DNA of 64,000 nucleotides, taken from assembly GCF_024298765.1 (NCBI RefSeq), contig NZ_CP101210.1; one strand, given 5' to 3'. Origin of the DNA: Escherichia coli (GTDB taxonomy: Bacteria > Pseudomonadota > Gammaproteobacteria > Enterobacterales > Enterobacteriaceae). A program made the translations under genes and the position numbers. Shown piece by piece: positions 5,376 through 56,345 of this stretch. Each line of letters opens with the position of its first letter. The first letter of the stretch is position 1. Under the pieces are notes generated by a model. That model worked only from the letters and a program-made list of their open reading frames with translations. It had not been told where the DNA came from and ran no database searches.

Positions 5376-5384
5376 AGTGACTCC

Positions 5385-5684: not shown

Positions 5685-5866
5685 AGATATTTAAGTATTT
5701 TCTAAATTAAGTAAACTCTAAATTAAAAATGCAACATATACCAGCCTCAGCAGCGTAAATGAGAGTAAAAGCGTAAGCTGAAACTGGCAGGCTCCGCTAA
5801 AATTACTACGCTTAAGAGATAAAATCTCTTTTTAAACAATGAGTAATTTTCTTATAGGGAGTACAT

Positions 5867-6025: not shown

Positions 6026-6108
6026 ACCTGTGTTCACCCCCGCGGCGTTAACGCGCCGCGTTCCTCTGCTACACTTTCTGAGTGTTTCCGTTAACGAATG
6101 AGGTAGCT

Positions 6109-7239: not shown

Positions 7240-7241
7240 TA

Positions 7242-8642
7242 TCAGCGCGTATTATGAATGGGTGTTTTTTGCCACATTATCAGCTTTTTCCAGCGAGCCA
7301 TAATTGGCACGGTACAGATAATCCCAATCGCTAATAAGCCGGTGGAGAGCACTTCTAACTGTTGCGCCGGGCGGAATAGCATCACTACCAACACAAAGGT
7401 AATAAAACCGATGACCAGCCAGGTGAGCCACGGATAAAGCCACATCCGCAGGCGAATTTCGCTTCCTTCTGCTCGCAGAATTTTGCGCATCCGCAATTGT
7501 GAAACGGCGATGACTAAATAAACCAGCAGGGCGATAGCGCCGGAGCTGTCGATCAGAAATTTAAACACCTTCGCAGGCGCGTAATAGTTCACCACCACCG
7601 TTAAGAATGCCGCGCCGGTGGAGAGTAACACCGCTACGTACGGGGTTTTACTGCGGTTGATTTTACCCATTACCGCGGGAGCATCACCGCGACGGCTTAA
7701 GGAGTAGAGCATCCTGGAAGCGGTATACAGCGCCGAGTTCAGGCAACTGGTTACGGAAAGTAATATCACGCAGTCCATGATTAATTTCGCATGAGGAATA
7801 TTGAGCAATTCCAGAACCGAGCGATAAGAACCAACGGCTTTCAGCCCTGGCATATTCCACGGTATTAATGCCACAACGACAAAAATAGAACACAAATAGA
7901 AAATAGAGATACGCCAGATAACCGAGTTGGTGGCGCGGACAATATGTTTTTCCGGCGTGTCGGATTCCGCGGCGGCAATGGTGACAATTTCTGCGCCCAT
8001 AAACGAGAACATGGTGATCAACATCGCGCTTAATACCGCACCGAAGCCGTTGGGCATAAAGCCGCCGCTATCCCACAATCTTGAAATACCGCTCACGTCG
8101 GCATACGGGTAAAAACCGCTAATTGCGACTGCACCAAGGAAAATAAAGGCCAGGATAGCGATGACTTTACACAGCGCCAGCCAGAACTCAAATTCGCCGT
8201 AGTTTTTAACGCTTAATAAATTACTGCCGGTTAAGGCGAGGGTAATGACGAGGGAAAATAACCAGATGGGAATGCCTGGAACCCACGAGTGCAGGATCAT
8301 GGCGGCGATGTTGGCTTCCAGCGGGATAACCAGTACCCAAAACCACCAGTACAGCCAGCCGATGGTATAGCCCGCCCAACGGCCAATAGCTTTATCGGCA
8401 TAGGTGGAAAACGAACCGGTATCGGGCGTGGCAACTGCCATTTCCGCCAACATCCGCATAATCATAACCACCAGTAATCCGGCGAACAGATAGGCCAGTA
8501 ATACCGCCGGGCCCGCTTCGGCGATGGCGACGCTGGAACCGACAAACAGACTTGCGCCGATAACACCGGCAATAGACAACATGGTGACGTGGCGTGACTT
8601 CAGCCCGCCGCCTAACTCATGTGGTTGCGATGATTGCCCCAT
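7242..8642 (-). CDS. gabP: GABA permease GabP (APC-family amino acid transporter)
   Basis: Polytopic membrane ORF; recalled GabP N-terminus MGQSSQPHELGGGLKSRHVTM matches the internal Met, giving start 8642 (track ORF extends to 8705). Confidence 0.85.
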   Translation of the reverse strand: MGQSSQPHELGGGLKSRHVTMLSIAGVIGASLFVGSSVAIAEAGPAVLLAYLFAGLLVVMIMRMLAEMAVATPDTGSFSTYADKAIGRWAGYTIGWLYWWFWVLVIPLEANIAAMILHSWVPGIPIWLFSLVITLALTGSNLLSVKNYGEFEFWLALCKVIAILAFIFLGAVAISGFYPYADVSGISRLWDSGGFMPNGFGAVLSAMLITMFSFMGAEIVTIAAAESDTPEKHIVRATNSVIWRISIFYLCSIFVVVALIPWNMPGLKAVGSYRSVLELLNIPHAKLIMDCVILLSVTSCLNSALYTASRMLYSLSRRGDAPAVMGKINRSKTPYVAVLLSTGAAFLTVVVNYYAPAKVFKFLIDSSGAIALLVYLVIAVSQLRMRKILRAEGSEIRLRMWLYPWLTWLVIGFITFVLVVMLFRPAQQLEVLSTGLLAIGIICTVPIMARWKKLIMWQKTPIHNTR

Positions 8643-8736
8643 CCTGAATCCTCTCGAAAGTGTGTCACTTGGGAGAGCGCCCCGACATTTCCCGCGTCGG
8701 GTCACGCGTGTAATTGTTATTGGTTCTTTTTACCGG

Positions 8737-8870
8737 AGAGCGGCTCCGCCTTATCCGGCCGACATAGATTTATTCCTGTTCACGTACAGATTGTCGGATG
8801 CAGCGTAAACGCTTTATCCGACCTGGATTCGCGTAGGCCGGACAAGACGCGCAGCGTCGCCTCCGGCATG
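8737..8870. repeat. REP/BIME palindromic units in the gabT-gabP intergenic region
   Basis: Several GCCGGATG / CTTATCCGGCC / GTAGGCCGGACAAGACGC-type imperfect palindromes. Confidence 0.6.
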
Positions 8871-8879
8871 GGTACGGAT

Positions 8880-10160
8880 CTACTGCTTCGCCTCAGCAAA
8901 ACACTGGCTGATGATTTCCAGACCCTGACGGATCTGAGCGTCTTCAATGGTGAGCGGTACAAGGATGCGCAGCACGTTGTAATACGGGCCGCAGGAGAGA
9001 AGAATCAGGCCTTTATCGCGGGCACGCGCCACGATCTCGGCGGTGAGTTTGGCGTCCGGTTTGCTGTGATCGCCATCTTCAAACAGCTCGATGGCAATCA
9101 TCGCTCCCAGCCCGCGTACATCGCCGATCTCCGGGTGTTTTTCGGCTATCGCCAGCAATCCGTCTTTCAGCTTATGCCCCAGGTCGTTGGCTTTTTGCAG
9201 CAGATTTTCCTGCTCGAATACCTTTAACACTTCCAGCGCTGCCACGCAGGCAATCGGGTTACCGGCATAGGTGCCGCCCAGACCGCCTGGAGCGACGGCA
9301 TCCATCACTTCCGCGCGCCCGGTGACGCCCGCCAGCGGGAAGCCGCCCGCGATCGATTTCGCAAAGGTGGTAAGATCCGGCGCAACGTCCATCTGCTCCA
9401 TCGCAAACAGCGTGCCGGTACGCCCCGCGCCGCTCTGCACTTCATCGGCAATCAGCATGATCCCGTGCTCGTCACACAGCGCGCGTAAACGCTGCATAAA
9501 GGCTGGCGTCGCGGCGTAGAAACCGCCTTCGCCCTGAACCGGCTCAATCACGATGGCGGCGATATCTTCCGGCGCGGCGTCATTTTTGAAGATCCGGTGG
9601 ATGCTGGCGATAGCGTCATCCTCGCTTATGCCGTGCAGCGGGCAAGGATAAAGCGCGCGATAAACATGACCCGGCATCAGCCCCATGCCCGCAGAGTACG
9701 GATTCACCTTGCCGGTCAGCGCCAGCGTGTAATGCGTGCGCCCGTGATACGCACCGCTAAAGGCGATAGTACCGCTACGTTTAGTGGCGGCGCGGGCGAT
9801 TTTCACCGCGTTTTCCACCGCTTCGGAACCGGTCGTAACCAGCAGCGTTTTTTTGGCGAAATCTCCCGGCACCTTCTGATTCATAATCTCGCACAGCTCC
9901 AGATACGGTTCGTAAGCCAGCACCTGGAAGCAGGTGTGCGACAGCTTTTTCAACTGCGCTTCCACCGCCGCAACCACTTTCGGATGCAGGTGCCCGGTAT
10001 TGAGCACCGCAATGCCGCCCGCGAAATCAAGATACTCACGACCTTCAACGTCCCACACCCGGCAGTTTTCCGCGCGGTCAGCGAAAATGGGGTGAATTTG
10101 CCCAACGCCACGAGGAACTGCCTGACTACGGCGCTGCATTAACTCTTTATTGCTGCTCAT
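8880..10160 (-). CDS. gabT: 4-aminobutyrate aminotransferase GabT (PLP-dependent)
   Basis: 426-aa ORF MSSNKELMQRRSQAVPRGVGQIHPIFADRAENCRVWDVEGREYLDFAGGIAVLNTGH... Confidence 0.9.
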   Translation of the reverse strand: MSSNKELMQRRSQAVPRGVGQIHPIFADRAENCRVWDVEGREYLDFAGGIAVLNTGHLHPKVVAAVEAQLKKLSHTCFQVLAYEPYLELCEIMNQKVPGDFAKKTLLVTTGSEAVENAVKIARAATKRSGTIAFSGAYHGRTHYTLALTGKVNPYSAGMGLMPGHVYRALYPCPLHGISEDDAIASIHRIFKNDAAPEDIAAIVIEPVQGEGGFYAATPAFMQRLRALCDEHGIMLIADEVQSGAGRTGTLFAMEQMDVAPDLTTFAKSIAGGFPLAGVTGRAEVMDAVAPGGLGGTYAGNPIACVAALEVLKVFEQENLLQKANDLGHKLKDGLLAIAEKHPEIGDVRGLGAMIAIELFEDGDHSKPDAKLTAEIVARARDKGLILLSCGPYYNVLRILVPLTIEDAQIRQGLEIISQCFAEAKQ

Positions 10161-10173
10161 TCGCGTTCTCCAG

Positions 10174-11622
10174 TTAAAGACCGATGCACATATATTTGAT
10201 TTCTAAGTAATCTTCGATGCCATACTTCGAACCTTCACGACCCAGACCCGAGGCTTTAATGCCGCCGAACGGGGCCACTTCATTGGAAATAATGCCAGTA
10301 TTAATGCCGACGATGCCGTACTCCAGCGCCTCGCCCACGCGGAAGACGCGGCTTAAATCACGGGCGTAGAAATAGGCGGCAAGGCCAAACTCGGTGTCAT
10401 TGGCCTGCGCAATCACATCGGCTTCATCTTTAAAGCGGAATAGCGGGGCAAGGGGGCCGAACGTCTCTTCTTTCGACACTTTGGCGTTGGCCGGAACGTC
10501 CACCAGAATGGTCGGCTGGAAGAAGTTGCCGCCGCGTTCATCCGCTTTACCGCCGCAAACCACACGCGCACCTTTCTCCAGCGCATCGGCAATATGCTCT
10601 TCCACTTTTGCTACCGCTTTTTCATCAATCAGCGGCCCAATGGTGACGCCATTCTCCAGCCCGTCGCCGATGTGCAGTTTGCTCACCGCCTGCTGCAATT
10701 TTTCGGCAAAGCGGTCATACACGCCGTCCTGCACGTATAAACGGTTGGCGCAGACGCAGGTTTGCCCGGCGTTGCGGAATTTCGAGGCCAGTGCGCCTTC
10801 CACGGCTTTGTCGAGGTCGGCATCGTCAAAGACGATAAACGGCGCGTTGCCGCCCAGTTCCAGCGACACTTTCTTGATGTCTTTCGCGCACTGTTCCATT
10901 AACTGGCGGCCAATTTCGGTCGAGCCGGTAAACGACAGTTTGCGCACCAGCGGGTTGCTGGTCAGTTCGTTACCGACCGCGCCCGCCGAACCGGTGACCA
11001 CGTTAAATACGCCAGCCGGAACGCCTGCGCGAATCGCCAGTTCCGCCAGCGCCAGCGCAGAGAACGGCGTCTGACTGGCAGGTTTCAGCACCATCGTGCA
11101 GCCTGCCGCCAGCGCCGGACCGGCTTTACGGGTAATCATCGCCGCCGGAAAGTTCCACGGCGTGATAGCAGCAGTGACGCCAATCGGCTGCTTGATAACA
11201 ATCAGGCGTTTATCGGCCTGATGACCGGGAATGGTGTCGCCATAAATACGTTTGCCTTCTTCAGCAAACCACTCAATAAAGGAGGCCGCGTAGCTGATTT
11301 CGCCTTTCGCTTCAGCCAGCGGTTTACCCTGTTCGAGGGTCATCAGGCGCGCTAAATCGTCCTGATGCTCCATCATCAAATTGAACCAGTTGCGCAGAAT
11401 GGTGGCGCGTTCTTTGGCGGTGAGCGCGCGCCAGGCGGGCAGAGCGCGGTTGGCGGCGTCGATAGCGGCGCGGGTTTCATCAGCGCCCATTTTCGGCACG
11501 CTACCCAGCTTGTCGCCGTTCGCCGGATTGGTGACGTCGATGACCTCGCCATTGTTGGCGTCCAGCCATTCCCCGTTAATCAACGCCTGCTGGCGGAATA
11601 AGTTACTGTCGTTAAGTTTCAT
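10174..11622 (-). CDS. gabD: Succinate-semialdehyde dehydrogenase GabD
   Basis: 482-aa aldehyde dehydrogenase-family ORF MKLNDSNLFRQQALINGEWLDA... Confidence 0.9.
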   Translation of the reverse strand: MKLNDSNLFRQQALINGEWLDANNGEVIDVTNPANGDKLGSVPKMGADETRAAIDAANRALPAWRALTAKERATILRNWFNLMMEHQDDLARLMTLEQGKPLAEAKGEISYAASFIEWFAEEGKRIYGDTIPGHQADKRLIVIKQPIGVTAAITPWNFPAAMITRKAGPALAAGCTMVLKPASQTPFSALALAELAIRAGVPAGVFNVVTGSAGAVGNELTSNPLVRKLSFTGSTEIGRQLMEQCAKDIKKVSLELGGNAPFIVFDDADLDKAVEGALASKFRNAGQTCVCANRLYVQDGVYDRFAEKLQQAVSKLHIGDGLENGVTIGPLIDEKAVAKVEEHIADALEKGARVVCGGKADERGGNFFQPTILVDVPANAKVSKEETFGPLAPLFRFKDEADVIAQANDTEFGLAAYFYARDLSRVFRVGEALEYGIVGINTGIISNEVAPFGGIKASGLGREGSKYGIEDYLEIKYMCIGL

Positions 11623-11644
11623 TGTTACGTCCTGTTTTCAAAGG

Positions 11645-12913
11645 TTATTGATTAAATGCGGCGTGTAAGGCATCCACACTACGTGCCGCTCGCAGCGTGC
11701 GTCCGGGGTTACTCTGGCTTGCCAACAGCGTTTGTACCTTGCTGACAATATGCGCACCAATAGGAATTGCTGATGTCGCTGCCGGGGAGGGCGCATTGCA
11801 GGTGTGGATCGTGCGCGGGGTGGTGACAAACAGAAAATCGTCAATCAGCTTGCCGTCCGGCGATACCGCCTGCGCCCGCACACCAGCGGGCCAGGGCTGG
11901 AGATCGCTTAACGAAAGCCGGGGACAATACTTTTGCACCAGCCGCAGATAGCCGCTTTTGCACAGCGAGTTTTTCATCTCGCCCAGTCCTGAGCGTAGAT
12001 GGTTTTGCAGCACCCGGCGAATCCCCGACGAGCCCAAAATCTCCAGCGTGTCGCTAAATGAGAAGTCGCGCTTACGATAGCCTTCGCGTTTGAAAGCCAG
12101 CACCGCGTTTGGCCCGACGGTCACGCTGCCATCGATCATGCGGGTGAGATGCACGCCCAAAAATGGCATCGCGGGGTCGGGAATGGGGTAAATCAGGTGG
12201 TTAACAATCTGGTTATGCTCCGGCGCAAGGCGGAAATACTCGCCACGGAACGGGCAGATAATAAAGCCCGGTTCGAGGCCGAGCATTTTCACCAGCCGGT
12301 CAGCCATCAGCCCGGAACAGCTAATCAGCGTCGATGCTTCATATTCACCGCCCTGACGGGTACGTATCACCACGCCGTTTTTATGCTCACTGAGGGCGCT
12401 GACTTCGGCGTTATAAATAATCTCGCCGCCTCTGGCCTGGAAGATTTTTGCCATCGCCGCCGTCACTTCGCGATAGCTGACAATGCCGCTGGACGGCACA
12501 AAAATGCCGCCGAGCCCGGTGATATTCGGTTCGCGCTCGCGCAGTTCCTCGGCGTTTAGCCACTCGCGCTCGATACCATTCGCCGCCGTACGTTCCCACA
12601 ACGCGCGCATCCGTTCCATTTCGAGTTCAGAGGTGGCGACCAGCATCTTGCCGCAGTTGTCATAGCGAATGCCGTTTTGATCGCAAAAGGCTTTGGTGGC
12701 GCGGTTCCCCGCCAGGCAAAACTGCGCCTTCAGGCTACCGGGCGTGTAATAAACCCCGGCATGGATCACGCCGCTGTTGTGGCCTGTCTGATGACAGGCC
12801 GGACCGGACTCTTTTTCCAGCAACGCAATGCGGGCATCCGGATAAACATCAATCAGTTGCATGGCGGTCGACATGCCGATGATGCCGCCGCCAATAATCA
12901 CAAAATCATACAT
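11645..12913 (-). CDS. lhgO: L-2-hydroxyglutarate oxidase/dehydrogenase LhgO (YgaF)
   Basis: FAD-binding GxGxxG near the N-terminus (MYDFVIIGGGIIGMSTAM); track ORF extends upstream to 12979. Confidence 0.85.
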   Translation of the reverse strand: MYDFVIIGGGIIGMSTAMQLIDVYPDARIALLEKESGPACHQTGHNSGVIHAGVYYTPGSLKAQFCLAGNRATKAFCDQNGIRYDNCGKMLVATSELEMERMRALWERTAANGIEREWLNAEELREREPNITGLGGIFVPSSGIVSYREVTAAMAKIFQARGGEIIYNAEVSALSEHKNGVVIRTRQGGEYEASTLISCSGLMADRLVKMLGLEPGFIICPFRGEYFRLAPEHNQIVNHLIYPIPDPAMPFLGVHLTRMIDGSVTVGPNAVLAFKREGYRKRDFSFSDTLEILGSSGIRRVLQNHLRSGLGEMKNSLCKSGYLRLVQKYCPRLSLSDLQPWPAGVRAQAVSPDGKLIDDFLFVTTPRTIHTCNAPSPAATSAIPIGAHIVSKVQTLLASQSNPGRTLRAARSVDALHAAFNQ

Positions 12914-12932
12914 CCGCTCAATTCCTTTGCGC

Positions 12933-14009
<1,077 letters not shown>

Positions 14010-14440
14010 TTACATATTGTTTTCTTATTGCGATCAAAAACAACAAATTAATAACAAATAATGTGAGGGATAAGAATTGGGTTGAAAGGAAATGAATAAT
14101 TAAAACAATATATTAAGTGTGCTTATACTCTTTTTCGAACTGGTGGCATTTGTTTAAATGCTATTTAAACTGCTTTTCCAGAGTTCAACTTACTGAGTTC
14201 CGTGTCGACTAATGTGAGTAAGATCAATCGCATCCAACCTATGTTACTTGATGGAATCGATAACAATATTAATGAATATACAGATTCCGGGAAGGCTGGC
14301 TATGGGGGCAAATTATTCTCTTTCTGGCAACGGGTAAATAACAGTGACCATTTGTCGAGAAGCTGATACTGAGCTGAGGGATACTGTATATGTCTGGACT
14401 GTAATTGGATGAATTCTATTCAGGGCGGGTCAGGACCAAT

Positions 14441-14624
14441 AAAAAAGCCCGCATCAGCGGGCTTTAATGTCATAGGGAGTCGCGACTCCGTTGCGTATCC
14501 TTTTTTGTCTCCTCACCGTCTGGTCGGTGTCCTGCTGAGACTTATAACTTCCTGTTTTTGTTGGTGTAGTCCTTACACCGTCCAATCATGATTGGTGGAG
14601 CTGGCGGGAGTTGAACCCGTGTCC
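14441..14624. repeat. Left att-associated direct repeat: displaced copy of the ssrA 3' end (~33 nt) plus ~150 bp of ssrA-downstream sequence
   Basis: ~90% identical by eye to 54238-54423; homology to ssrA stops at 14624, after which AT-rich prophage sequence begins. Confidence 0.7.
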
Positions 14625-15050
14625 ATAGTTATGTAATTCATTGAATTTAAATAGCCAAATATTGTTGATTTTACAAGCGGCTCTTTTGCGGAACTTTTTC
14701 TGTCCTGTTACTGTCTTACTATTTATTTTAAAATAGTTTCATTTGGAATTAATGGTTTGTGGTTGCAGTTTCGGAGATAGATAGCATTTTTTGCTAAAAA
14801 ATATTTTTATAAAAAATGTGTGTAAAAATGATGTTATGCACAGATTTATGCACAGAGGCTTTGTGATAAACCAGATTGTTTTGGATAAGTTTGTTTTTTT
14901 GTGATTTGTCAACAATATTATTGACTCTTGTTACTAAAGTGAGTGTTTTCTAAGGTGGTCAGAAGTTGTCCCTTCATGTAATCTTATTAGCCATAAAGAA
15001 CAAAAAATAATTCAACATCATTACCAACTATTTGTAAGATAAGGTTTTTA

Positions 15051-15866
15051 ATGTTGCAGCCAGCAAAAAAAGCATCAGTTATTAGCGCGCGGCTAACGAA
15101 ATACCTCAAAGATGGAGTGAGGATTGATGACTTTAGCTTTAGAAGGATGTTACGTGAGATTGAAGCACTTAGAGATCCTGTCTCTGAGGACTATCTTTTA
15201 GCGTTGGTCTATGGTGCACATGGCCAAGTGAATGAGGCGATAGGCTTCTTTGAGCGTTCCTTGCAGGTATGCCATAATGAGGTTGTTGCAAAGAATTTTC
15301 TTGTTTTCTTGTCAGATTACGGTACGTTGAAGAAAAGCTTTGAAACAAGCATTAAGCTTGCTGAAAGCTTCATATCCCCGTTTATTTATCTTCAAGCTTA
15401 TGAAAACTCCCTCTTTATGGGGAAGATGGCGTTGGCGGAGAAGTATTTCCAGTCATACTCTAAATTGTTCGGAGATAAGGAGCCTGAAAAAATGGACAAC
15501 AATCTTGATGAAGTTGTTTCCCAGGTCGAATCCTTTAAGCAACGTGCCGATCTTTCTGGTTTAGAATATGAACTTATTTTCAATAATGTAGCCAATGTCA
15601 TGGATTCTCAGAAGGTTCATCTTTCGGGAATGCGTTTTTATAATATTTCGGAAGAGAAAGTGAATGCGATTGTATTCATGACAAAGTCTTCTGATGCTGA
15701 ACAAATCGCTGATATGAATATTGAGCTTGCTTTTTCAATGGCTGAGCACGATTGTTTAGTCGGTAAAGATTTTGCTGTTTGGTTTGAATGTAAAGACACA
15801 CATATTGAGCAGAATGCTATCTCCGAATTAGGTCTGATTACCCGGAGGGTTGCACATGCCGGTTAA
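15051..15866 (+). CDS. Hypothetical protein (271 aa), first gene of a two-gene cargo operon beside attL/int; function unknown
   Basis: Clean ORF, soluble and helical-looking, no motif I recognise; AT-rich by eye; AT-rich upstream leader. Confidence 0.55.
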   Translation: MLQPAKKASVISARLTKYLKDGVRIDDFSFRRMLREIEALRDPVSEDYLLALVYGAHGQVNEAIGFFERSLQVCHNEVVAKNFLVFLSDYGTLKKSFETSIKLAESFISPFIYLQAYENSLFMGKMALAEKYFQSYSKLFGDKEPEKMDNNLDEVVSQVESFKQRADLSGLEYELIFNNVANVMDSQKVHLSGMRFYNISEEKVNAIVFMTKSSDAEQIADMNIELAFSMAEHDCLVGKDFAVWFECKDTHIEQNAISELGLITRRVAHAG

Positions 15867-16239
15867 TAGTCAAGATTTTCTCGGTTTTGCAAAAGACTGT
15901 CATCAACGTAATGACGAAATCGGCTATCGAAATGCTATAGCAAGATCCTACTATGGCGCTTACCATCATGTCTTGCCTTGTATGGTAAACGGGCCGAAAG
16001 ACAGTCATCAGGGGCTAATCAATTATTTGCAGGGCGATGCTTCAAGAGGAAGTGAAGTATATGAAGCTAGATATCTAAAAGGGATTAGTTTTATCCTGAG
16101 TCAACTTAAAGCTCAGAGGATTGTTGCAGACTATCGACTTGATCAATCGGTCACTTCTAAACAGTCTGAAGTTGCGATTCTAACAACTGAGAGGCTCTTT
16201 GCTAAGTGTACGGAAATGCTTAAATCGAGAGCCTCCTAA
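15850..16239 (+). CDS. Hypothetical protein (129 aa), overlaps upstream gene by 17 nt; contains an R-x6-H dyad (RSYYGAYHH)
   Basis: Overlapping start implies translational coupling; followed by a terminator hairpin at 16246-16270. Confidence 0.5.
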   Translation: MHMPVNSQDFLGFAKDCHQRNDEIGYRNAIARSYYGAYHHVLPCMVNGPKDSHQGLINYLQGDASRGSEVYEARYLKGISFILSQLKAQRIVADYRLDQSVTSKQSEVAILTTERLFAKCTEMLKSRAS

Positions 16240-16245
16240 TTGATA

Positions 16246-16270
16246 AAGCCACTTAAGTGGCTTTTTTTGT
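16246..16270. terminator. Hairpin plus T-run between the convergent cargo operon and int
   Basis: aaagccacttaagtggcttttttt. Confidence 0.6.
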
Positions 16271-17425
16271 GATATTGCTGGTCGTATTACCGTCATATTC
16301 CTTTAAATATAAACCATAATGACGAAATAACATTTCCGGCCCTTTATGCCCCATTTGAGCTGCAAGCCAAAACAGGTTTGCTCCCCGGCTGATATGGCGG
16401 GTGGCGAATGTATGCCTAGTTTGATATGGATTTCTGTAACGAATACCTGCTTTTCGCAATGTTGGCACCCATGCTTTTTTCCTGATTGCATCAGCACTTG
16501 CCCAAGGCTTATTGGTCTTTGGATCTTCAAAGACAGTAGTATCCTTCATGAATGTAAATGGCTTCTGATTTATCAGCGCCAACATTGCCTCTTCTGTCAG
16601 TTCAACTTTCCGAGTACCTGCTTTTGTCTTTGTCCCTTTGATAACACCGACAACACTTGCGCTCTGGACATGGGCAGTTTTTCCAACAAAGTCGATATCA
16701 CGCCATCGAAGGGCACATAATTCAGAACTACGCAGGCCTGTATGTATAGCGAACCGGAACAGATTTTCCCATTGTTTGTTTCCGGCTGCTGCTAGTAATG
16801 CATCAACTTCTGCTGGTGATAGCGGATCAACTACGTAGCTGCTTTCTGCTTCTGACTTATCACTTTGGTAGCGCGAAGCTGTTACTAACGATACGGGGTT
16901 AATTTGAAGTACCCCATCGGTCACGGCTTCATCAAGTGCTGACCGCAGGAAAGATAACTGGTTGCGAATTGTTTTTAAGGTCGTTTTCTGATTTTGAATC
17001 CACGCTTTCAGGGTTGCTGGTGTTAATTCACTTGCAGGGCAAATGTGAAGTGAGGCTAACGCACTACGGCATTTTTTATAGCCACCAATCGTAGAGGGTG
17101 AAAGTTTTCTTGTTTCGCAGATTTCAAGATATTCGTCCAGGTACATCTTTACCGTTTTGCCTGCAGCAGCATTACCAAAAATTTTCAAACGAGCAGAACG
17201 GGGAAAATATTCTGCATAAATGAATGTTCCCCTTTCGATCTTATTATGGATTTCGCCGAGTGTACGCTCGGCGTATTTAATGTTCTTTGGTGTTACTTCC
17301 AGATTGGAAAGCGGCTCACGACATCTAACTCCTTTGTAGGTGAAAGTTATATTGATCGTTTCTCCCTGGCGGTGTTTCCTGATTGTTACGCCGCGCGGTA
17401 GTTTGAGCAGTTTTGTCTGGCCCAT
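16253..17425 (-). CDS. int: Phage integrase, tyrosine recombinase family
   Basis: 390-aa ORF with C-terminal catalytic region (...HTGLRSSELCALRWRDID...RHTFATRHISRGANLFWLAAQMGH...); adjacent to xis and the att region. Confidence 0.85.
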   Translation of the reverse strand: MGQTKLLKLPRGVTIRKHRQGETINITFTYKGVRCREPLSNLEVTPKNIKYAERTLGEIHNKIERGTFIYAEYFPRSARLKIFGNAAAGKTVKMYLDEYLEICETRKLSPSTIGGYKKCRSALASLHICPASELTPATLKAWIQNQKTTLKTIRNQLSFLRSALDEAVTDGVLQINPVSLVTASRYQSDKSEAESSYVVDPLSPAEVDALLAAAGNKQWENLFRFAIHTGLRSSELCALRWRDIDFVGKTAHVQSASVVGVIKGTKTKAGTRKVELTEEAMLALINQKPFTFMKDTTVFEDPKTNKPWASADAIRKKAWVPTLRKAGIRYRNPYQTRHTFATRHISRGANLFWLAAQMGHKGPEMLFRHYGLYLKEYDGNTTSNITKKAT

Positions 17426-17631
17426 TTTGCAACCTCACTAAGATCAATCCACCTCTCCTTAACGCCTTCAACCTTTAAAACCTGAACACCTTCACGCCAA
17501 ACACCGCGCTGTACACGTTTGTTTATTGCTTCAGGAGTTTCGCCAGTTTCTTTGCAATAAGTTGAGATAGGAACACAATCGAGGTTCAGCATACGTTTCT
17601 CCATTATCCCGTCTGCACACGGGAGCAACAT
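17386..17631 (-). CDS. xis: Putative excisionase / small DNA-binding protein
   Basis: 81-aa basic ORF immediately upstream of and overlapping int by 40 nt, as in lambda xis-int; exact start uncertain. Confidence 0.5.
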   Translation of the reverse strand: MLLPCADGIMEKRMLNLDCVPISTYCKETGETPEAINKRVQRGVWREGVQVLKVEGVKERWIDLSEVAKWARQNCSNYRAA

Positions 17632-17633
17632 TA

Positions 17634-18524
17634 TTAACGAATAGTGTCGTTACTTTGAAGTACAGCAAATGCCATTAATACTTCTAAAGTATATCTTCTA
17701 TAAAATTTAACAAAACCAACATAGAAAACATAGACGAAGAAAAAGCTAAGCATTATTGAAAGTAAACTATAAAGATAATCACTATGAGTACATAATCGAT
17801 AAATAAAGGTTGGAACTGATACCCAAAATGAAATTATAAAGATTAAACATATGTTTCTGCAAAAACCATATAATGCAACATAGTTTTGAATTTTTGTTTG
17901 ATGTTGTTTTGAAAACTCATAAACATAATGATATGCCAATCTGAAGAGATCATCATCAAGTCCGTTTTTATCTTGTAATAATTGGCGATTTGTTATGAAC
18001 TTTTTCTCATAACCTTCTTTGATCATTAACCATGTTGTATTAGCTAAATGAAATGGTAGAGATTGAGAATAACATAGTTTTTGTGTTATAAAATCCCATA
18101 GTATTATTGGGCATAATACGCATTTGATTATGCGATTCTTTATTTTTGTTTTTTTATCAGCGCTTCTCTCATCGCATGATGGGCTACAAATGCTTTCTGA
18201 GGTATCTATCAATTTTTTAAATAGATATTTGGAAGGATATCCTAATTCTTTATTCATGTATTTTTCGATAAAAAATGCTGACGTGATAGAAATAAAATGT
18301 CCAGCTATATAAGATATAATAACTATTGAAGCGTAGTTCAAAATGCCAAAGATTTGACTTTGACCTCTGAGCAATTCACTTAAGTCAATAACAATATCTA
18401 GATCGAATGTCAAACCACAGAAATACATTAATAGGATAAAAAAACCACCTGGTATTAAATATCCAAGAAAGTCATAGAATGAGAATGGATTTTGATTCAT
18501 TGTTGCTCTCCAATAATTTTTCAA
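17634..18524 (-). CDS. Hypothetical integral membrane protein (296 aa; ~2 N-terminal and ~2 C-terminal TM helices around a soluble core)
   Basis: Strikingly AT-rich by eye compared with neighbours; hydrophobic stretches FFILLMYFCGLTF, IVIISYIAGHFISITSAFFI, ICLIFIISFWVSVPTFIY, LLSIMLSFFFVYVFYVGFV. Confidence 0.55.
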   Translation of the reverse strand: MKNYWRATMNQNPFSFYDFLGYLIPGGFFILLMYFCGLTFDLDIVIDLSELLRGQSQIFGILNYASIVIISYIAGHFISITSAFFIEKYMNKELGYPSKYLFKKLIDTSESICSPSCDERSADKKTKIKNRIIKCVLCPIILWDFITQKLCYSQSLPFHLANTTWLMIKEGYEKKFITNRQLLQDKNGLDDDLFRLAYHYVYEFSKQHQTKIQNYVALYGFCRNICLIFIISFWVSVPTFIYRLCTHSDYLYSLLSIMLSFFFVYVFYVGFVKFYRRYTLEVLMAFAVLQSNDTIR

Positions 18525-18608
18525 TTTGTAATATAACCTATATCTATATGTTAATAAATTACTTATATGTTCTTTTATGGCAGAGTTTGAATTCGTACGT
18601 GCTGATTT

Positions 18609-28068: not shown

Positions 28069-28455
28069 ATGTCCGATCCGATTTCCGGTACTGGGCTGGC
28101 TGGTGGTGCCCTGACGGGTGCCAGTGTTTATGGACTGCTGACCGGAACTGATTACGGCGTTGTATTTGGCGCATTTGCAGGGGCTGTATTCTACATAGCA
28201 ACAGCAGCAGATCTGAGTGCATCGCGTCGACTGGCATATTTTATCGTGTCATATATTGCCGGGATTCTTTGCTCTGGGTTGGTTGGCTCCAAGCTGGCGA
28301 ACTTGACCGGATACAGTGATAAACCTCTGGATGCTATTGGTGCCGTAATCGTCTCTGCTTTAGCCGTTAAAATCCTGACGTTCCTGAATAATCAGGATAT
28401 CGGCTCGCTGGTGGCGCTCATAACGCGCCGGGGAGGTTCAGGTGGAGCTAAATGA
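28069..28455 (+). CDS. Putative holin (membrane protein, lysis cassette)
   Basis: 128-aa hydrophobic ORF directly upstream of the endolysin. Confidence 0.6.
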   Translation: MSDPISGTGLAGGALTGASVYGLLTGTDYGVVFGAFAGAVFYIATAADLSASRRLAYFIVSYIAGILCSGLVGSKLANLTGYSDKPLDAIGAVIVSALAVKILTFLNNQDIGSLVALITRRGGSGGAK

Positions 28456-28723
28456 CCCGACAGCAACTATAAATGCGCTGTTATGTGCTTGTGTTGTTAT
28501 TACTCTGATGTTTTATCGTCGTGGTGATTCGCGGCATCGTCCTTGGGTTTCACGTTTAGCCTGGCTGATTACTGTTACATACAGTGCTGTTCCGTTGGCC
28601 TATCTCTGTGGGATTTATCCTCATTCCTCATGGCCCATTATCGTGGCGAACACTATTTTTCTTTCCGTGCTGGTGGCCGTCAGAGGCAACGTTGCACGTC
28701 TGGTTGATCATCTGAGGCACTAA
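28442..28723 (+). CDS. Second small lysis-cassette membrane protein (holin/antiholin candidate)
   Basis: 93-aa ORF with TM segments, overlapping the neighbouring genes. Confidence 0.5.
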   Translation: MELNDPTATINALLCACVVITLMFYRRGDSRHRPWVSRLAWLITVTYSAVPLAYLCGIYPHSSWPIIVANTIFLSVLVAVRGNVARLVDHLRH

Positions 28724-29337
28724 TGAACCAACAATTATTTCAAAAGGCGGCTGGTATTAGCGCCGGGCTGGCTGCGCGCTGGTTTCCGCACATTGATGCG
28801 GCGATGAAGGAATTCGGCATTACAGCACCAGCGGATCAGGCAATGTTTATCGCTCAGGTAGGCCATGAGTCGATGGGGTTTAGCGCCGTAGTTGAAAATT
28901 TTAACTACACACCATCTGCGCTGGTGGCGACGTTCGGAAAGAGGATCACACAGCAGCAGGCTGATGCCCTTGGCAGAACATCCGGACATGCAGCTCGTCA
29001 GGATGCTATTGCCAATCTGGTGTATAGCAACCGACTGGGTAACAAAGCACCAGGTGATGGCTGGAAATATCGTGGTAGAGGATTAATTCAAATCACTGGC
29101 CTCCATAATTATCGCATCTGTGGCGCGGCGCTGAAGTTAGATCTGGTGACTTCACCTGAACAACTGGAACAGGAACTACAGGCTGCGCGCTCAGCTGCAT
29201 GGTTCTACACCTCTAAAGGTTGCATGATCTACGGTGCCGATATTAACCGTGTTACGCGCATCATTAACGGCGGTCTGAACGGTATTGAGGATCGTAAGGT
29301 CCGATACAACAAGGCGCGGGCGGCGCTGCTGGTATGA
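28723..29337 (+). CDS. Endolysin, glycoside hydrolase family 19 (chitinase-like lysozyme)
   Basis: 204-aa ORF with GH19-like motifs (FIAQVGHESMGF, KYRGRGLIQITG). Confidence 0.75.
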   Translation: MNQQLFQKAAGISAGLAARWFPHIDAAMKEFGITAPADQAMFIAQVGHESMGFSAVVENFNYTPSALVATFGKRITQQQADALGRTSGHAARQDAIANLVYSNRLGNKAPGDGWKYRGRGLIQITGLHNYRICGAALKLDLVTSPEQLEQELQAARSAAWFYTSKGCMIYGADINRVTRIINGGLNGIEDRKVRYNKARAALLV

Positions 29338-29726
29338 AGATGAGTTATTGGGCGCTCATTTTAACGTTTATTGCTTGTGTCGCTGGTGGTCTTGTCTGGT
29401 CAGCGAATCACTATCATGGAAAGTTTCTGGAGGAGCAGAAGCGTGCTGATGCTGCGGAACAGCGAGCTGATTCTACTGAGGCTATCACCGCGAATGTTCT
29501 GCGTACTATGGCAATAACGAACATCATTCAGGAGGCGAATCAACATGCAAAACAGCAGATCGCACTGGAGTCACAGAGAACCCAGGAAGATATCAAAGTG
29601 GCTGTTGCGGATGATGATTGTGCTTCACGTCCTGTGCCTGCTGCCGCTGCTGACCGGTTGCGGAAGTACGCGAACAGTTTACGTCCAGGTTCCGGTAGTT
29701 CCGTTACCAGCCAGCCTGACGGCTGA
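29334..29726 (+). CDS. i-spanin (Rz-like), N-terminal TM plus coiled coil
   Basis: 130-aa ORF with N-terminal TM and charged helical region; follows the endolysin. Confidence 0.7.
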   Translation: MKMSYWALILTFIACVAGGLVWSANHYHGKFLEEQKRADAAEQRADSTEAITANVLRTMAITNIIQEANQHAKQQIALESQRTQEDIKVAVADDDCASRPVPAAAADRLRKYANSLRPGSGSSVTSQPDG

Positions 29727-29880
29727 AACCCCTCAGCCTGATTTACCTGATCATTTTACGTGGGGCTCGAGCTTAGATCTGAATGTCGCCTTGTTGTCTG
29801 CATTGGCGCAGTGTAATACCGATAAAGCTGACATCAGAAGGATTGAAGTTGAGCGTGGTCACATCATGCAAAAAAAATGA
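29611..29880 (+). CDS. o-spanin (Rz1-like) lipoprotein, overlapping Rz in another frame
   Basis: Lipobox LLPLLTGC after MMIVLHVLC; proline-rich; starts inside Rz and extends 154 nt past its stop. Confidence 0.65.
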   Translation: MMIVLHVLCLLPLLTGCGSTRTVYVQVPVVPLPASLTAETPQPDLPDHFTWGSSLDLNVALLSALAQCNTDKADIRRIEVERGHIMQKK

Positions 29881-29972
29881 TGTTAACTTTGTTTTGTTCC
29901 TTGATTTGATATGTGATGGCCCAATAGATACAAAGCACCTGATTTTGGTGACTCTTTTAAAGGGCTTTACAC

Positions 29973-30293
29973 ATGAAAGATGGTATCTATTTTGTTGTTT
30001 TCAGAAGCAATCAACGTGATTTTGGTAATGGTACCGTAGTTGTCAAAAACAATGCAGTAAATGGCGGAGATTTTGGTTTTACGTATCAGGGAAAAATTGA
30101 CGGTAGCCAACTTATTCTGCGCGTATCGCAGCATGATTTAAATGTCACCTCGGTTTTCCCTGGGGTAAAGAACTTTGAATTGAGTCTTTCTTTGCAGGAA
30201 CGAGGACGTGATTACCTGTTAAATGGATCTGTGGTCGGAATGCCTCAGATGCAAATTTCAATTAGTGCAAAATACATTGGTGATCTGATTTAG
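29973..30293 (+). CDS. Hypothetical moron protein (106 aa), possibly GrlR-like
   Basis: AT-rich by eye; MKDGIY...GGD...YQG pattern resembles GrlR-family proteins as far as I recall (unverified). Confidence 0.4.
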   Translation: MKDGIYFVVFRSNQRDFGNGTVVVKNNAVNGGDFGFTYQGKIDGSQLILRVSQHDLNVTSVFPGVKNFELSLSLQERGRDYLLNGSVVGMPQMQISISAKYIGDLI

Positions 30294-30299
30294 TTTATC

Positions 30300-30335
30300 G
30301 AGATGATAATTGAACCGCCTCCGGGCGGTTTTTTA
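30300..30335 (+). terminator. Rho-independent terminator after the moron gene
   Basis: gaaccgcctccgggcggtttttt. Confidence 0.6.
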
Positions 30336-30385
30336 TTGCCATTTCTATGGTCTGTTCCATCGTAATAACTTAAAGGGAAGCATTA

Positions 30386-30736
30386 ATGCCGCCACGAACC
30401 CCGAAAGCCTGCCGTGTTCGCGGCTGCCGCCATACCACTACTGACCCTTCAGGCTACTGCGAAAGCCACAAAAGCGAAGGCTGGAAGCAATACAAACCTG
30501 GACAATCCCGTCATCAGCGCGGCTACGGTTCGAAGTGGGACAGTATCCGCGCTCGTGTTCTGAAGCGTGACAAAGGCCTGTGTCAGTTATGTCTGCGTGC
30601 TGGTGTGGTGCGTGAGGCGAAAACTGTTGACCACATCATCCCTAAAGCGCATGGCGGCACTGATGCCGACTGTAATCTGCAGAGTCTGTGCTGGCCGTGT
30701 CATAAGGCGAAGACGGCCCGTGAACGGTTGAAGTGA
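30386..30736 (+). CDS. HNH endonuclease (packaging-associated)
   Basis: 116-aa ORF with Cys pairs and DHIIPKAHGG...N HNH motif; directly upstream of the terminase small subunit. Confidence 0.75.
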   Translation: MPPRTPKACRVRGCRHTTTDPSGYCESHKSEGWKQYKPGQSRHQRGYGSKWDSIRARVLKRDKGLCQLCLRAGVVREAKTVDHIIPKAHGGTDADCNLQSLCWPCHKAKTARERLK

Positions 30737-30861
30737 TAATGATTCTCAACTGCCTGAGGGGAGGGGCGGGTCAAATCCCTGCGGCCTGACGTCTTCCGGA
30801 CTGCCCGCCCCATCGTTTTTTTATACCCGCGAAAAATGAAATTTAACCAGGAGTGCCGCAT

Positions 30862-31356
30862 ATGGCTGGAACGGCGGGGCGTTCCGGGCGTCGCCCCAAG
30901 CCAACGGCGCGCAAGGCGCTGGCCGGAAACCCCGGCAAGCGAGCCCTGAATAAAGATGAACCTGTTTTTACGCCCATCAAAGGTGTTGAGCCACCGGAGT
31001 GGTTCGCTGAAGAAGATCTCCCTCTCGCCACGATCATGTGGCAACTGACAACCAAAGAACTCTGCGGTCAGGGCCTGCTGTGCGTGACTGACCTCGCGGT
31101 GCTTGAGCGGTGGTGCGTGGCCTATGAGTTCTGGCGACGTGCCGTGAAAAATATTGCCAGCCAGGGCAACACCATTACCGGTGCAATGGGCGGTATGGTC
31201 AAAAACCCGGAGCTGACCGCCAAGAAAGAACAGGAGTCCGAGATGAGCAGCACGGGGGCAATGCTCGGACTCGACCCCAGCAGCCGCCAGCGTCTGATTG
31301 GCCTGGCGGGGAAGAAGAAAGCCACTAACCCGTTTCTGAAAATCATCGAGTCATGA
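30862..31356 (+). CDS. Terminase small subunit (P27-family-like)
   Basis: ATG 30862 with AGGAG upstream; [31 protein letters not shown]-terminus. Confidence 0.7.
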
Positions 31357-33086
31357 GCCGGAAATCTTACCCCAACGTAAATGCTGCCAATCAGTATGCC
31401 CGGGATGTCGTGCGCGGAAAGATTGTTGCCTGCCAGTTTGTGATTCAGGCCTGCCAGCGCCATCTTGATGACCTGATGGCGGAAAAAAGTAAGTCGTTTC
31501 GTTACCGCTTCGACAAGGACCTGGCTGAACGGGCCGCGAAATTTATTCAGCTGTTGCCGCACACCAAGGGTGAGTGGGCATTCAAACGGATGCCCATCAC
31601 GCTGGAGCCGTGGCAGCTATTTGTGATCTGCTGTGCGTTTGGCTGGGTCAATAAAGGCACCCGGTTGCGCCGCTTCCGGGAGGTGTATACCGAAATCCCC
31701 CGTAAGAACGGCAAATCAGCAATCTCTGCCGGTGTTGCCCTGTATTGTTTTGCCTGTGATAACGAGTTTGGCGCGGAAGTGTATTCCGGTGCCACGACAG
31801 AGAAACAGGCGTGGGAAGTCTTTCGCCCGGCGCGACTGATGTGTAAACGCACACCCATGCTGACGGAAGCGTTCGGGATTGAGGTTAACGCCTCAAACAT
31901 GAACCGTCCGGAGGATGGCGCGCGGTTTGAACCGCTGATCGGCAACCCCGGTGATGGTTCATCACCCCACTGTGCCGTGGTTGATGAATATCACGAGCAT
32001 GCCACCGATGCGCTTTATACCACAATGCTTACCGGGATGGGGGCGCGACGTCAGCCACTGATGTGGGCCATCACCACCGCCGGGTACAACATTGAGGGGC
32101 CGTGCTACGACAAGCGGCGGGAAGTCATCGAGATGCTCAACGGCTCGGTGCCTAACGATGAACTGTTCGGGATCATCTATACCGTTGATGAAGGTGACGA
32201 CTGGACCGACCCGCAGGTGCTGGAAAAAGCCAATCCAAATATTGGCGTGTCGGTTTATCGCGAATTTTTGTTAAGTCAGCAGCAGCGTGCGAAAAATAAC
32301 GCCCGTCTGGCAAACGTCTTTAAAACGAAACACCTCAATATCTGGGTGTCGGCACGTTCGGCGTATTTCAACCTGGTGAGCTGGCAGAGCTGCGAGGATA
32401 AATCACTGACCCTTGAGCAGTTCGAGGGGCAGCCGTGCATTCTGGCCTTTGACCTGGCGCGTAAGCTGGATATGAACAGCATGGCGCGACTTTATACCCG
32501 CGAGATTGACGGTAAAACGCATTACTACAGTGTGGCCCCGCGCTTCTGGGTACCGTATGACACGGTGTACAGCGTCGAGAAAAATGAAGATAGACGGACA
32601 GCCGAACGCTTTCAGAAATGGGTGGAAATGGGCGTCCTGACCGTTACCGATGGTGCAGAGGTGGATTATCGCTACATCCTCGAAGAGGCCAAAGCGGCGA
32701 ACAAAATCAGCCCGGTCAGTGAGTCACCCATCGACCCCTTCGGGGCGACCGGGCTGTCACATGACCTTGCTGATGAAGATCTGAATCCCGTCACTATCGT
32801 CCAGAACTTCGCCAATATGTCCGATCCGATGAAAGAGCTGGAAGCAGCGATTGAATCGGGACGCTTTCATCATGACGGCAATCCCATCATGACCTGGTGT
32901 ATCGGCAATGTGGTCGGCAAAAACATGCCTGGTAACGATGATTTAGTGAAGCCCGTCAAGGAGCAGGCGGAAAACAAAATCGATGGTGCGGTTGCACTGA
33001 TTATGACGATCGGTCGGGCAATGCTCAAAGAACCTGGCGATTTCCTCTCATCTCTTGATCCGGACGATGATCTCTTAATTCTATGA
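31353..33086 (+). CDS. Terminase large subunit
   Basis: 577-aa ORF downstream of TerS with an ATPase-like N-terminal region and nuclease-like C-terminus. Confidence 0.8.
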
Positions 33087-51478: not shown

Positions 51479-52912
51479 ATGTCTGAATTTGAAGTGTTGG
51501 CACAGCATCTGCTGAAGGAAGCCGAGGCGGAAGAAAAGCTGCGACAGGAAAATGATAAAAAGCTTATCGAGAAAGTGCTGGAAATCTATGATCAGAAGTA
51601 TGTGGCTGAATTACTGAGAAAAGTCGGAAAAAATGAGTGGAGCCGTGAAACCATTAACCGCTGGATTAATGGCAAGTGTTTACCAAAATCGTTGACTTCA
51701 GTAGAAGAGTCTCTTCTGCGTAAGATGCTACCAGAACCACCTGCAAACCATCCGGAATATGCTTTCCGCTTCATTGACTTATTTGCTGGAATTGGAGGGA
51801 TACGGAAAGGTTTTGAGGCCATTGGAGGCCAGTGTGTTTTTACCAGTGAATGGAATAAAGATGCTGTGCGTACATACAAGGCCAACTGGTTTAACGATGA
51901 ACAGGTGCATAAATTCAATCTCGATATTCGGGAAGTCACGCTGAGTGATAAAACCGATGTATTGGAAACGGATGCTTATGCATATATTGATGAGCATGTG
52001 CCGGATCATGATGTGCTTCTTGCGGGGTTCCCGTGCCAGCCATTTAGCCTTGCTGGTGTTAGTAAGAAAAACTCACTTGGTCGTGCGCATGGTTTTGAAT
52101 GTGAAGCACAAGGAACACTTTTTTTTGACGTGGCACGTATTATACGAGCAAAAAAACCGGCAATTTTTGTGCTGGAAAATGTCAAAAATCTGAAGAGCCA
52201 TGATAAGGGTAAAACTTTCAAAGTCATTATGGAGACCCTTGACGAGCTGGGCTACGAAGTTGCCGATGCTGCAGAAATGGGAAAAAACGATCCAAAGATT
52301 ATCGATGGGAAGCATTTTTTGCCTCAGCATCGTGAACGCATTGTTCTGGTCGGATTTAGACGAGATCTGAATATTCACAAGGGGTTTACCTTGCGTGATA
52401 TCAGTCGTTTTTATCCGGAACACCGCCCATCATTTGGTGAATTGCTGGAGCCTGTAGTCGACAGTAAATATATACTTACGCCAAAACTATGGGAGTACCT
52501 TTATAACTACGCCAAAAAGCATGCAGCCAAGGGGAATGGTTTTGGCTTTGGGTTGGTCAATCCTGAGAATAAGGAAAGCATTGCACGCACACTTTCTGCC
52601 AGATATCACAAAGACGGATCAGAAATTCTTATTGATCGTGGTTGGGATATGGCAACGGGAGAGGCTGACTTTATGAATGAGAGTAATCAGGCTCGTCGAC
52701 CACGCAGGCTGACTCCCCGAGAGTGCGCACGCCTTATGGGATTTGAAAAACCTGGAGGGAAACCATTCCGTATTCCGGTTTCAGATACTCAGTCATATCG
52801 GCAGTTCGGTAACTCAGTTGTGGTGCCAGTATTTGAAGCTGTTGCCAGACTTCTGGAACCCTATATCCTCAAAGCTGTTTCTGCTGATGCTGGTAAGACT
52901 GGGCAGCCTTGA
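51479..52912 (+). CDS. DNA cytosine-5 methyltransferase, Dcm/M.EcoRII family (predicted CCWGG)
   Basis: [12 protein letters not shown] (motif I), [10 protein letters not shown] (PCQ, motif IV), ENV (motif VI), QFGNSV (motif X); collinear with recalled Dcm; alternative start at 51437. Confidence 0.85.
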
Positions 52913-52946
52913 GAACATCTCCCGGCCTTTTAAGCCGGGAGTCAGC

Positions 52947-54161: not shown

Positions 54162-54237
54162 CCCTTTGTTAACATACAGTCAGGGTTAACATTTTTCCAT
54201 AGTTATAGATAAGCGGCTAGGAACTTAAGGGAAAAAC

Positions 54238-56337: not shown

Positions 56338-56345
56338 CAGACAGA

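Follow-up and report, generated by a model that had tools for sequence, protein, structure and literature searches.

The closest described relative of the protein analysed here is LEE GrlR, which sequesters GrlA through an EDED motif (PMC1868957): both GrlA binding and LEE repression were lost in a tetra-alanine mutant of the surface 46-EDED-49 loop (Jobichen 2007, PMC1868957). GrlR is acidic and GrlA basic (pI 4.83 and 9.71, respectively; PMC1868957), and the GrlR barrel, similar to the lipid-binding pilotin MxiM, encloses a hydrophobic cavity in which Triton X-100 was found trapped (PMC1868957). LEE promoters are also repressed by GrlR without the involvement of GrlA, an activity that extends to E. 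coli K-12 and is exerted through some conserved element (PMC9979310). [quoted passage not shown] With respect to genomic setting, the closest counterparts are the classical lambdoid morons (Hendrix/Juhala), such as lambda bor downstream from Rz. These are small autonomous cassettes of the late region, located at a module junction, with a deviant base composition, a terminator of their own and a pattern of presence or absence between otherwise collinear phages. The cassette described below shares all these features, but it carries a gene for a cytoplasmic GrlR-fold protein instead of one for a surface lipoprotein or a toxin, and its promoter is weakly supported.

The sequence studied (hereafter referred to as the window) is a stretch of 64,000 nucleotides from the Escherichia coli contig NZ_CP101210.1, and corresponds to a prophage with lambdoid regulation (cI/Cro, Q), an HK97-type head and a Mu-type contractile tail. 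The ORF of interest occupies positions 29973-30293 on the plus strand, begins with an ATG codon and encodes a protein of 106 amino acids (MKDGIYFVVF...), the RefSeq product WP_000651450.1, annotated as “GrlR family regulatory protein”. It is preceded by an AT-rich leader of 92 bp (29881-29972, plus strand) with a Shine-Dalgarno-like AAGGG at 29960-29964, and followed by an intrinsic terminator on the same strand (30312-30337) with an 8-bp GC-rich stem, a 4-nt loop and a T-run. Upstream lie the lysis genes, consisting of two holin genes (28069-28723), a GH19 endolysin gene (28723-29337), an Rz-like gene (29334-29726) and, partly embedded in the latter, the Rz1/LysC o-spanin gene (29545-29880, plus strand; PF23793 LysC, E = 1.6e-18; lysC in the PGAP annotation), which closes the lysis cassette and forms the left border of the slot. 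The right border is an HNH endonuclease gene (30386-30736, plus strand; PF01844, E = 5e-15), which opens the packaging module and is followed by the genes for the P27-type small terminase TerS (30853-31356) and the large terminase TerL (31353-33086). The GC content falls from about 0.49-0.53 upstream to a trough of 0.38-0.41 over 29750-30350, and rises to 0.54-0.61 downstream. The ORF itself has a GC content of 0.389, versus 0.49 and 0.55 for its flanks, and a GC3 of 0.336, the corresponding values for the endolysin, Rz, HNH, TerS and TerL genes being 0.46-0.68. A sequence-only reading of the window had placed an AT-rich moron, possibly encoding a GrlR-like protein, between the spanins and the HNH/terminase genes; the ORF, the AT-rich block, the terminator and their position between the two modules were all present as proposed.

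The block at 29881-30385 (about 505 bp), comprising leader, ORF and terminator, is best explained as a self-contained moron at the lysis/packaging junction. The HNH/TerS region is common to about 1,290 E. coli genomes, only about 50 of which carry the cassette. The slot is empty in strain W12-1, in which LysC (Rz1) stops 26 bp before the HNH gene, and is filled by an unrelated 197-aa ORF in strain PD7. Homology to the window restarts at 30385-30399, at the start codon of the HNH gene or immediately within it (20 of the 40 partial matches listed); the left border of the cassette was set from BLAST coordinates and annotation, global alignment misplacing the diverged 3′ end of Rz1. The gene was AT-richer than its flanks at all 80 viral loci from IMG/VR (median difference of -10.5 GC points), and a GC contrast with neighbouring genes was also found in Klebsiella, Serratia, Acinetobacter and Xanthomonas chromosomes. 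Across loci, the upstream neighbours were lysis genes, belonging to at least six holin families, three endolysin types and several spanin types, and the downstream neighbours were HNH genes, portal genes and genes from at least seven terminase families. Given this diversity of flanking modules at a single junction, the cassette keeps to the module junction whatever modules flank it. The nearest recognised upstream lysis gene lay about 96 bp away in 38 of the 57 viral cases measured. Exceptions to this slot were an Acinetobacter copy located in a tail module and a Xanthomonas copy located among IS elements. No conserved co-travelling partner gene was detected, the neighbours being only lysis and packaging genes from many unrelated families.

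The hairpin of the cassette terminator, GAACCGCC-TCCG-GGCGGTTT, starts 18 nt past the stop codon of the ORF and is followed by a T-run. It folds at -20 kcal/mol (z = -4.3), a value matched by none of 200 shuffled sequences. The terminator sequence, AACCGCCTnnGGGCGGTTTTTT, is kept alongside the gene in E. coli, Citrobacter and Leclercia, the DNA beyond it being divergent, and a hairpin followed by a U-run was found no more than 90 nt from the stop codon at 76 of the 80 viral loci. An Rfam search of 29300-30900 yielded nothing but a sub-threshold chance match at the terminator. A hairpin at the Rz1 stop codon, considered as a candidate upstream terminator, was rejected, as its stability was at chance level (z = -0.18). 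The cassette is a moron by every criterion that can be tested on sequences, with the promoter as the weak point, and the moron proposal of the earlier reading is upheld by the presence or absence of the cassette at the Rz1/HNH junction, the alternative cargo in this slot, the GC contrast (80/80) and the terminator (76/80).

Two modes of transcription would be compatible with this organisation. Late transcripts should run into the cassette, because there is no terminator between Rz1 and the ORF. The leader also contains a weak sigma-70 promoter candidate (TTGATA at 29906-29911, a 17-nt spacer and a poor -10 element, TACAAA, at 29929-29934), the -35-like TTGA(T/A)A of which is kept in the Citrobacter and Leclercia copies. 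A formal sigma-70 scan of the window did not call TTGATA-17-TACAAA; its sole plus-strand match in the window overlapped the ATG codon of the ORF and was at chance level. Formal scans upstream from the Klebsiella and Acinetobacter copies yielded nothing above chance. The TATAAT of the Klebsiella copy is perfect, but no good -35 element accompanies it, and a formal promoter with 10 of 12 matching positions (TTCACC-16-TATAAT) was identified for the Serratia homolog. From these motifs, we infer that the cassette may have a promoter of its own. The retention of a terminator together with the ORF makes sense only for an RNA polymerase not modified by Q, and the cassette is therefore probably transcribed in the lysogen too.

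The phage-type GrlR-fold gene is almost exclusive to temperate phages and is under strong purifying selection. In comparisons between genera, pS values were saturated (0.70-0.94) and pN values were 0.10-0.31, with a dN/dS of 0.03-0.06 where this ratio could be calculated. Homologs from Enterobacterales and Acinetobacter are of near-constant length (105-108 aa), and 21 alignment columns are invariant across genera. The cassette was found in 53-56 of 5,426 complete E. coli genomes, at differing chromosomal positions, and all 53 of 53 E. coli copies were intact and at least 99.4% identical. The carriers included ETEC H10407, UPEC, commensal, animal and environmental strains; two of the 53 belonged to typical EHEC serotypes (O103:H2 and O121). 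Outside E. coli, the family is well represented in Klebsiella, Serratia, Pantoea, Cronobacter, Yersinia, Arsenophonus and Acinetobacter, and most of its hosts are LEE-free. It was present in 10 of 50,697 phage records, all for temperate or prophage-derived phages, and 139 IMG/VR contigs encoded a relative. The cassette of the window is 99.8% identical to that of the isolated Escherichia phage SKA5, and its host phage is best explained as an inducible temperate E. coli phage resembling SKA5.

The 106-aa protein gave full-length matches to the Pfam family PF16518, “GrlR” (E = 6.6e-6, 26.7 bits, with a gathering score of 26.8), and to phrog_2483 (PHROG 2483, function not assigned; E = 6e-53). A phmmer search of the PDB retrieved GrlR (2OVS/4KT5, E = 1.6e-10) over query residues 1-105, and LEE GrlR matched the window in tblastn with an E-value of 1e-11 and 29% identity; the grlR-grlA pair of EHEC Sakai was used as the reference for comparison. 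The MKDGIY, GGD and YQG pattern that the sequence-only reading had likened to GrlR proved to consist of conserved superfamily motifs aligning residue for residue with LEE GrlR. The N-terminal motifs common to the two proteins are MKDGIY, F, SN, GxG, GGD, YQG, SV and AKxI, and the superfamily motifs in the 106-aa protein are GIY, F, GxG, NGGD and YxG. The AlphaFold2 (AF2) monomer (pLDDT of 93.1) is all-beta, with eight strands and a loop at residues 54-66. Foldseek aligned this model with 4KT5_A/B and 2OVS_A with a TM score of 0.88, an rmsd of 2.0 Å and 29% identity; the next-ranked PDB match had a TMq of 0.38, and the other matches listed reached 0.60 at most. The 8-stranded beta-barrel and its plug loop are thus shared with LEE GrlR in the model. 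The search results and the model together show that the protein is a GrlR homolog with a predicted GrlR fold, and this part of the earlier reading, for which the decisive check was similarity to GrlR, was confirmed by significant matches.

A linked tandem AF2 model gave a pTM of 0.81 despite a disordered 30-residue linker, from which a GrlR-like homodimer is predicted. Among the residues forming hydrogen-bonded dimer contacts in LEE GrlR, Gln41 is retained (Q in 33 of 41 sequences), H55 varies, and an invariant G103 and D/E take the place of E108/P109. The genes encoding the two proteins are both AT-rich and horizontally acquired. No signal peptide or transmembrane segment was recognisable in the sequence of the 106-aa protein. 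It contains no effector or enzymatic domain, and a search of the BFVD viral structures revealed no significant relative and no structure of known function resembling it.

LEE GrlR would appear to form a minor derived lineage within a far larger superfamily. A profile built from the phage clade retrieved 475 clusters from 1.84 billion representatives at E≤1e-3 (158 at E≤1e-10), mostly single-domain proteins of 105-115 aa, and the cluster of LEE GrlR (P0189; E = 3.3e-13) was one of these 475. PF16518 scores LEE GrlR (18.4 bits) lower than the 106-aa phage protein (26.7 bits) or a Xanthomonas member (56.2 bits), and the “GrlR family” is therefore a wide grouping of proteins by fold that owes its name to an atypical member. 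As judged from these sequence comparisons, the family name carries no functional information for the phage clade. In a crude neighbour-joining (NJ) tree, the phage proteins formed a clade separate from the LEE-type clade. A gene from Salmonella enterica subsp. indica (P0258), which adjoins genes for PF07180 and GerE regulators and lies near sopB, belongs to the same superfamily as the phage protein, but grouped with LEE GrlR in the crude NJ tree. Such chromosomal non-LEE pairs of GrlR and CaiF_GrlA genes indicate that GrlR-fold proteins exist outside A/E pathogens. The S. indica type keeps a nearby CaiF_GrlA gene and a net charge of -4 to -5, whereas the protein of the window has neither, and the existence of a relative beside a CaiF_GrlA gene suggests that partnered and orphan forms constitute distinct lineages. 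A very distant fusion of a DUF4325 (STAS-like) domain with a GrlR domain, coupled to a gene with a weak STAS+HATPase_c match, was found next to genes for an Mrr restriction enzyme and a T5orf172 protein.

The sequence-only reading had gone on to suggest that the prophage gene might modulate LEE/T3SS and flagellar regulation as GrlR does. Such a functional equivalent would bind GrlA in LEE-positive hosts, or CaiF, repressing the LEE/T3SS and de-repressing flagella; full-length homology, the GrlR fold and the predicted dimer are all consistent with this possibility, CaiF is encoded by E. coli itself (PMC9979310), and two of the 53 E. coli carriers have EHEC serotypes. We nevertheless consider it very unlikely, on several grounds. 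The EDED loop is absent, aligning with “-GSQ” in the 106-aa protein, and throughout the phage clade this loop is one residue shorter than in LEE GrlR, with G/N/D, N/D/G/S and K/Q/R at the successive positions and mostly Lys at the position of D49. The 13-aa C-terminal tail of LEE GrlR is also missing. The 106-aa protein has a pI of 8.03 (about 5 for LEE GrlR) and a net charge of +1, whereas LEE GrlR has a net charge of -6 and, together with eight LEE-type relatives, spans values of -4 to -9. The phage clade as a whole has a median net charge of -2 and a pI below 5.5 in 37% of its members; it is therefore not uniformly non-acidic, and electrostatic binding to a basic partner may apply to some of these proteins. 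The NCBIfam equivalog model for GrlR, NF010652, scored the 106-aa protein at 40.5 bits, well short of its 205-bit cutoff. The gene lies in the late region of a prophage rather than in a LEE/T3SS island and has no adjacent grlA: no GrlA/CaiF-like gene was found in the window (best tblastn match, E = 0.25; none in the PGAP annotation of the prophage), at eight related loci (0/8) or at the 80 viral loci (0/80), and PF07180 (CaiF_GrlA) was absent from a Pfam scan of the 228 non-redundant neighbouring ORFs. The family is, moreover, carried by Klebsiella, Serratia, Pantoea, Acinetobacter and other LEE-free genera, and within E. coli we observed no enrichment in LEE-positive strains: grlRA is present in 697 of the 5,426 genomes, such that about 7 of 53 carriers would be expected to have it by chance, and about two were seen, as judged by serotype. 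The data do not support the view that the 106-aa protein is a functional GrlR equivalent, as far as its sequence and context can tell, and GrlR-style modulation of the LEE/T3SS and flagella, as first suggested, is not sustained, although an effect of the prophage gene on some host circuit is possible. At the other extreme, the small size of the ORF, a Pfam score 0.1 bit under the gathering threshold and the lack of a known function might be taken to mean that this AT-rich spacer holds an ORF that arose by chance or a remnant undergoing decay. This reading, to which we attach a negligible probability, is refuted by the 91 full-length homologs of about 106 aa, the confident AF2 model (pLDDT of 93) and the low dN/dS with saturated synonymous sites, and all 53 E. 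coli copies are intact.

The reading we favour, with a probability of roughly 0.5, is that the cassette is expressed as a moron and encodes a dimeric protein that binds or sequesters a target distinct from GrlA. Q-antiterminated transcripts would read through the cassette in the late phase, and in the lysogen it would probably also be transcribed on its own. The product would be a cytoplasmic eight-stranded beta-barrel of the GrlR fold, predicted to dimerise, and this small dimeric protein may act stoichiometrically, by binding or sequestration, by analogy with GrlR. Its putative target would be a protein of host or phage origin, perhaps with a regulatory function, or else a hydrophobic ligand occupying the cavity of the barrel; it must differ from GrlA, because the known GrlA interface is absent. 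The GrlA-independent repression by GrlR in K-12 (PMC9979310) implies that GrlR-fold proteins can have other targets, and this activity, together with the hydrophobic cavity of GrlR (PMC1868957), renders such binding plausible. A fitness benefit for the lysogen or the phage would presumably result. Alternatively, the close association of the gene with the lysis cassette might point to a function in lysis, with a barrel binding a lipid or another hydrophobic ligand, produced from the late operon and tuning lysis timing or membrane events. The Triton X-100 held in the MxiM-like cavity of GrlR (PMC1868957) fits such a role, as do the location of the gene directly after the spanins at most loci, at about 96 bp from a lysis gene in 38 of 57 cases, the overwhelming predominance of lysis genes among upstream neighbours and the absence of a terminator between Rz1 and the ORF. 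We judge it unlikely, however: the slot can be empty or carry unrelated cargo in phages sharing the Rz1 and HNH genes, and lysis therefore does not require the gene; it is accompanied by holins, endolysins and spanins from many unrelated families, and is found in a tail module in Acinetobacter and among IS elements in Xanthomonas; and the cassette has its own conserved terminator and a foreign base composition, with no signal peptide or transmembrane segment in its product. Similarly low odds are given to a role in phage-host conflict, in which the protein would mediate superinfection exclusion, defence or anti-defence by binding a phage protein or a host immune protein. Moron slots between lysis and packaging genes often hold cargo of this type, the family is limited to temperate phages, a Tad2-like anti-Thoeris gene was found among the upstream neighbours at one viral locus, and the distant DUF4325-GrlR fusion lies near Mrr and T5orf172 genes. 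That fusion is nonetheless the sole case of a defence-island setting, no PADLOC model matched the 106-aa protein or its relatives, and the protein has neither an effector or enzymatic domain nor a resemblance to any BFVD structure of known function.

A more speculative scenario, which we regard as quite improbable, concerns the phage proteins as a class and the origin of LEE grlR. The orphan GrlR-fold proteins of phages would be a widespread class of modulators binding a conserved host factor, and LEE grlR would be a domesticated descendant of a phage moron, having gained the EDED motif and a GrlA partner later. The host factor concerned could be the K-12-conserved element behind the GrlA-independent repression exerted by LEE GrlR (PMC9979310).

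RefSeq already assigns the protein to this family, and uncharacterised homologs outside the LEE have been noted in the literature. A literature search on GrlR-like proteins, the GrlR family and GrlR homologs in phages retrieved nothing functional, the sole relevant statement being that the non-LEE orthologs are hypothetical (PMC9979310). In the searchable literature, we found no description of the clade as a mobile temperate-phage moron at the lysis/packaging junction, of the systematic absence of GrlA, EDED and an acidic surface in this clade, or of LEE GrlR as a small derived branch of a larger family. Two leads were discarded: st313-td of the Salmonella phage BTP1, considered as a characterised member of the family, is a gene of 924 bp that no paper links to GrlR, and a case report describing “EPEC-like” genes, GrlR among them, in an ExPEC strain (PMC4622172) proved irrelevant, the GrlR match having an E-value above 1.

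The label “GrlR” or “T3SS negative regulator” is attached automatically in hundreds of prophages from E. coli, Salmonella, Klebsiella, Acinetobacter and other bacteria, and wrongly suggests that type III secretion is under the control of these prophages. The phage clade retains the fold without any of the features tying GrlR to GrlA. Identification of a target would reveal a new function in lysogenic conversion or phage fitness, one both strongly conserved and mobile, and it might illuminate the unexplained GrlA-independent activity of GrlR. Should the phage proteins bind a conserved host factor, their abundance would provide a route to the unexplained second target of GrlR.

The slot between Rz1/LysC (29545-29880) and the HNH endonuclease gene (30386-30736), which holds the AT-rich cassette with the 106-aa ORF (29973-30293, + strand) in the window, has other contents in other genomes. 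The corresponding slot of a related prophage in E. coli PD7 carries a 197-aa ORF as alternative cargo (L104:837-1430), for which no Pfam match was found, and further strains with related prophages have one or two "hypothetical proteins" at this position. In some genomes (H121, H122), the match to the window begins at about 30313, inside the intrinsic terminator (30312-30337), and the 106-aa ORF is absent. In one of the 80 viral loci compared, a Tad2-like (Thoeris anti-defence 2) gene lies just upstream of the GrlR-like gene, indicating that this region is also used by other accessory cargo. Within the 106-aa ORF, a sigma-70-like site (TTGACA-16-CAAAAT, 10/12) is present in antisense orientation (30019-30046, - strand); sites of this kind are about as numerous in the region as expected by chance.

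The prophage is flanked on the left (1-18600) by the gabD/lhgO/glaH side, on which the integrase ORF lies (16253-17425, minus strand), and on the right (50100-64000) by the recN/ffh/yfjD side, which also contains a type II restriction-modification pair. Collinearity with the FORC_082 prophage starts only at 18614 and continues onward, and the left (integration/early) arm is therefore mosaic. Near the right flank, 20-nt inverted repeats (AAACCTTGGTTTGGGAGAAG; 47749-47768 and 49606-49625), 95% complementary, bound about 1.8 kb containing tail-fibre and tail-fibre-assembly genes in opposed orientation, with an invertase gene adjoining. This segment looks like an invertible host-range switch of the Gin/Cin type.

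Relatives of GrlR were also found outside the LEE and phages. In Salmonella enterica subsp. indica (L014/L015:4613-6339), a GrlR-type gene (P0258), wrongly named "nucleoside transporter" in some records, is located downstream of regulator genes of the CaiF_GrlA and GerE families; the gene cluster is flanked by a fimbrial operon on one side and by sopB(IpgD) and its chaperone gene on the other. P0258 and the CaiF_GrlA-family gene constitute an apparently uncharacterised, non-LEE GrlR/GrlA-like pair. Xanthomonas arboricola (L012/L013:6001-6620) provides a non-phage setting for the family, with a GrlR-family gene convergent with a SymE-toxin-family gene in IS-rich surroundings. The Pfam model PF16518 ("GrlR") gave 56 bits for a Xanthomonas member, versus 18.4 bits for EHEC GrlR itself (L009:34361-34729, - strand), a score below the gathering cutoff of the model (26.8); PF16518 fits the wider GrlR family better than the eponymous protein.

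A more distant lineage is represented by P0199, encoded on a metagenomic contig (L020:1595-3141), in which a DUF4325 (STAS-like) domain is fused to a GrlR domain. The fusion gene overlaps the end of a 305-aa ORF with weak STAS and HATPase_c signals, and is adjoined by an Mrr-type restriction enzyme gene; its neighbour on a sister contig is a T5orf172 gene. In this lineage, a partner-switching or defence-island system may use the GrlR barrel as one of its modules.
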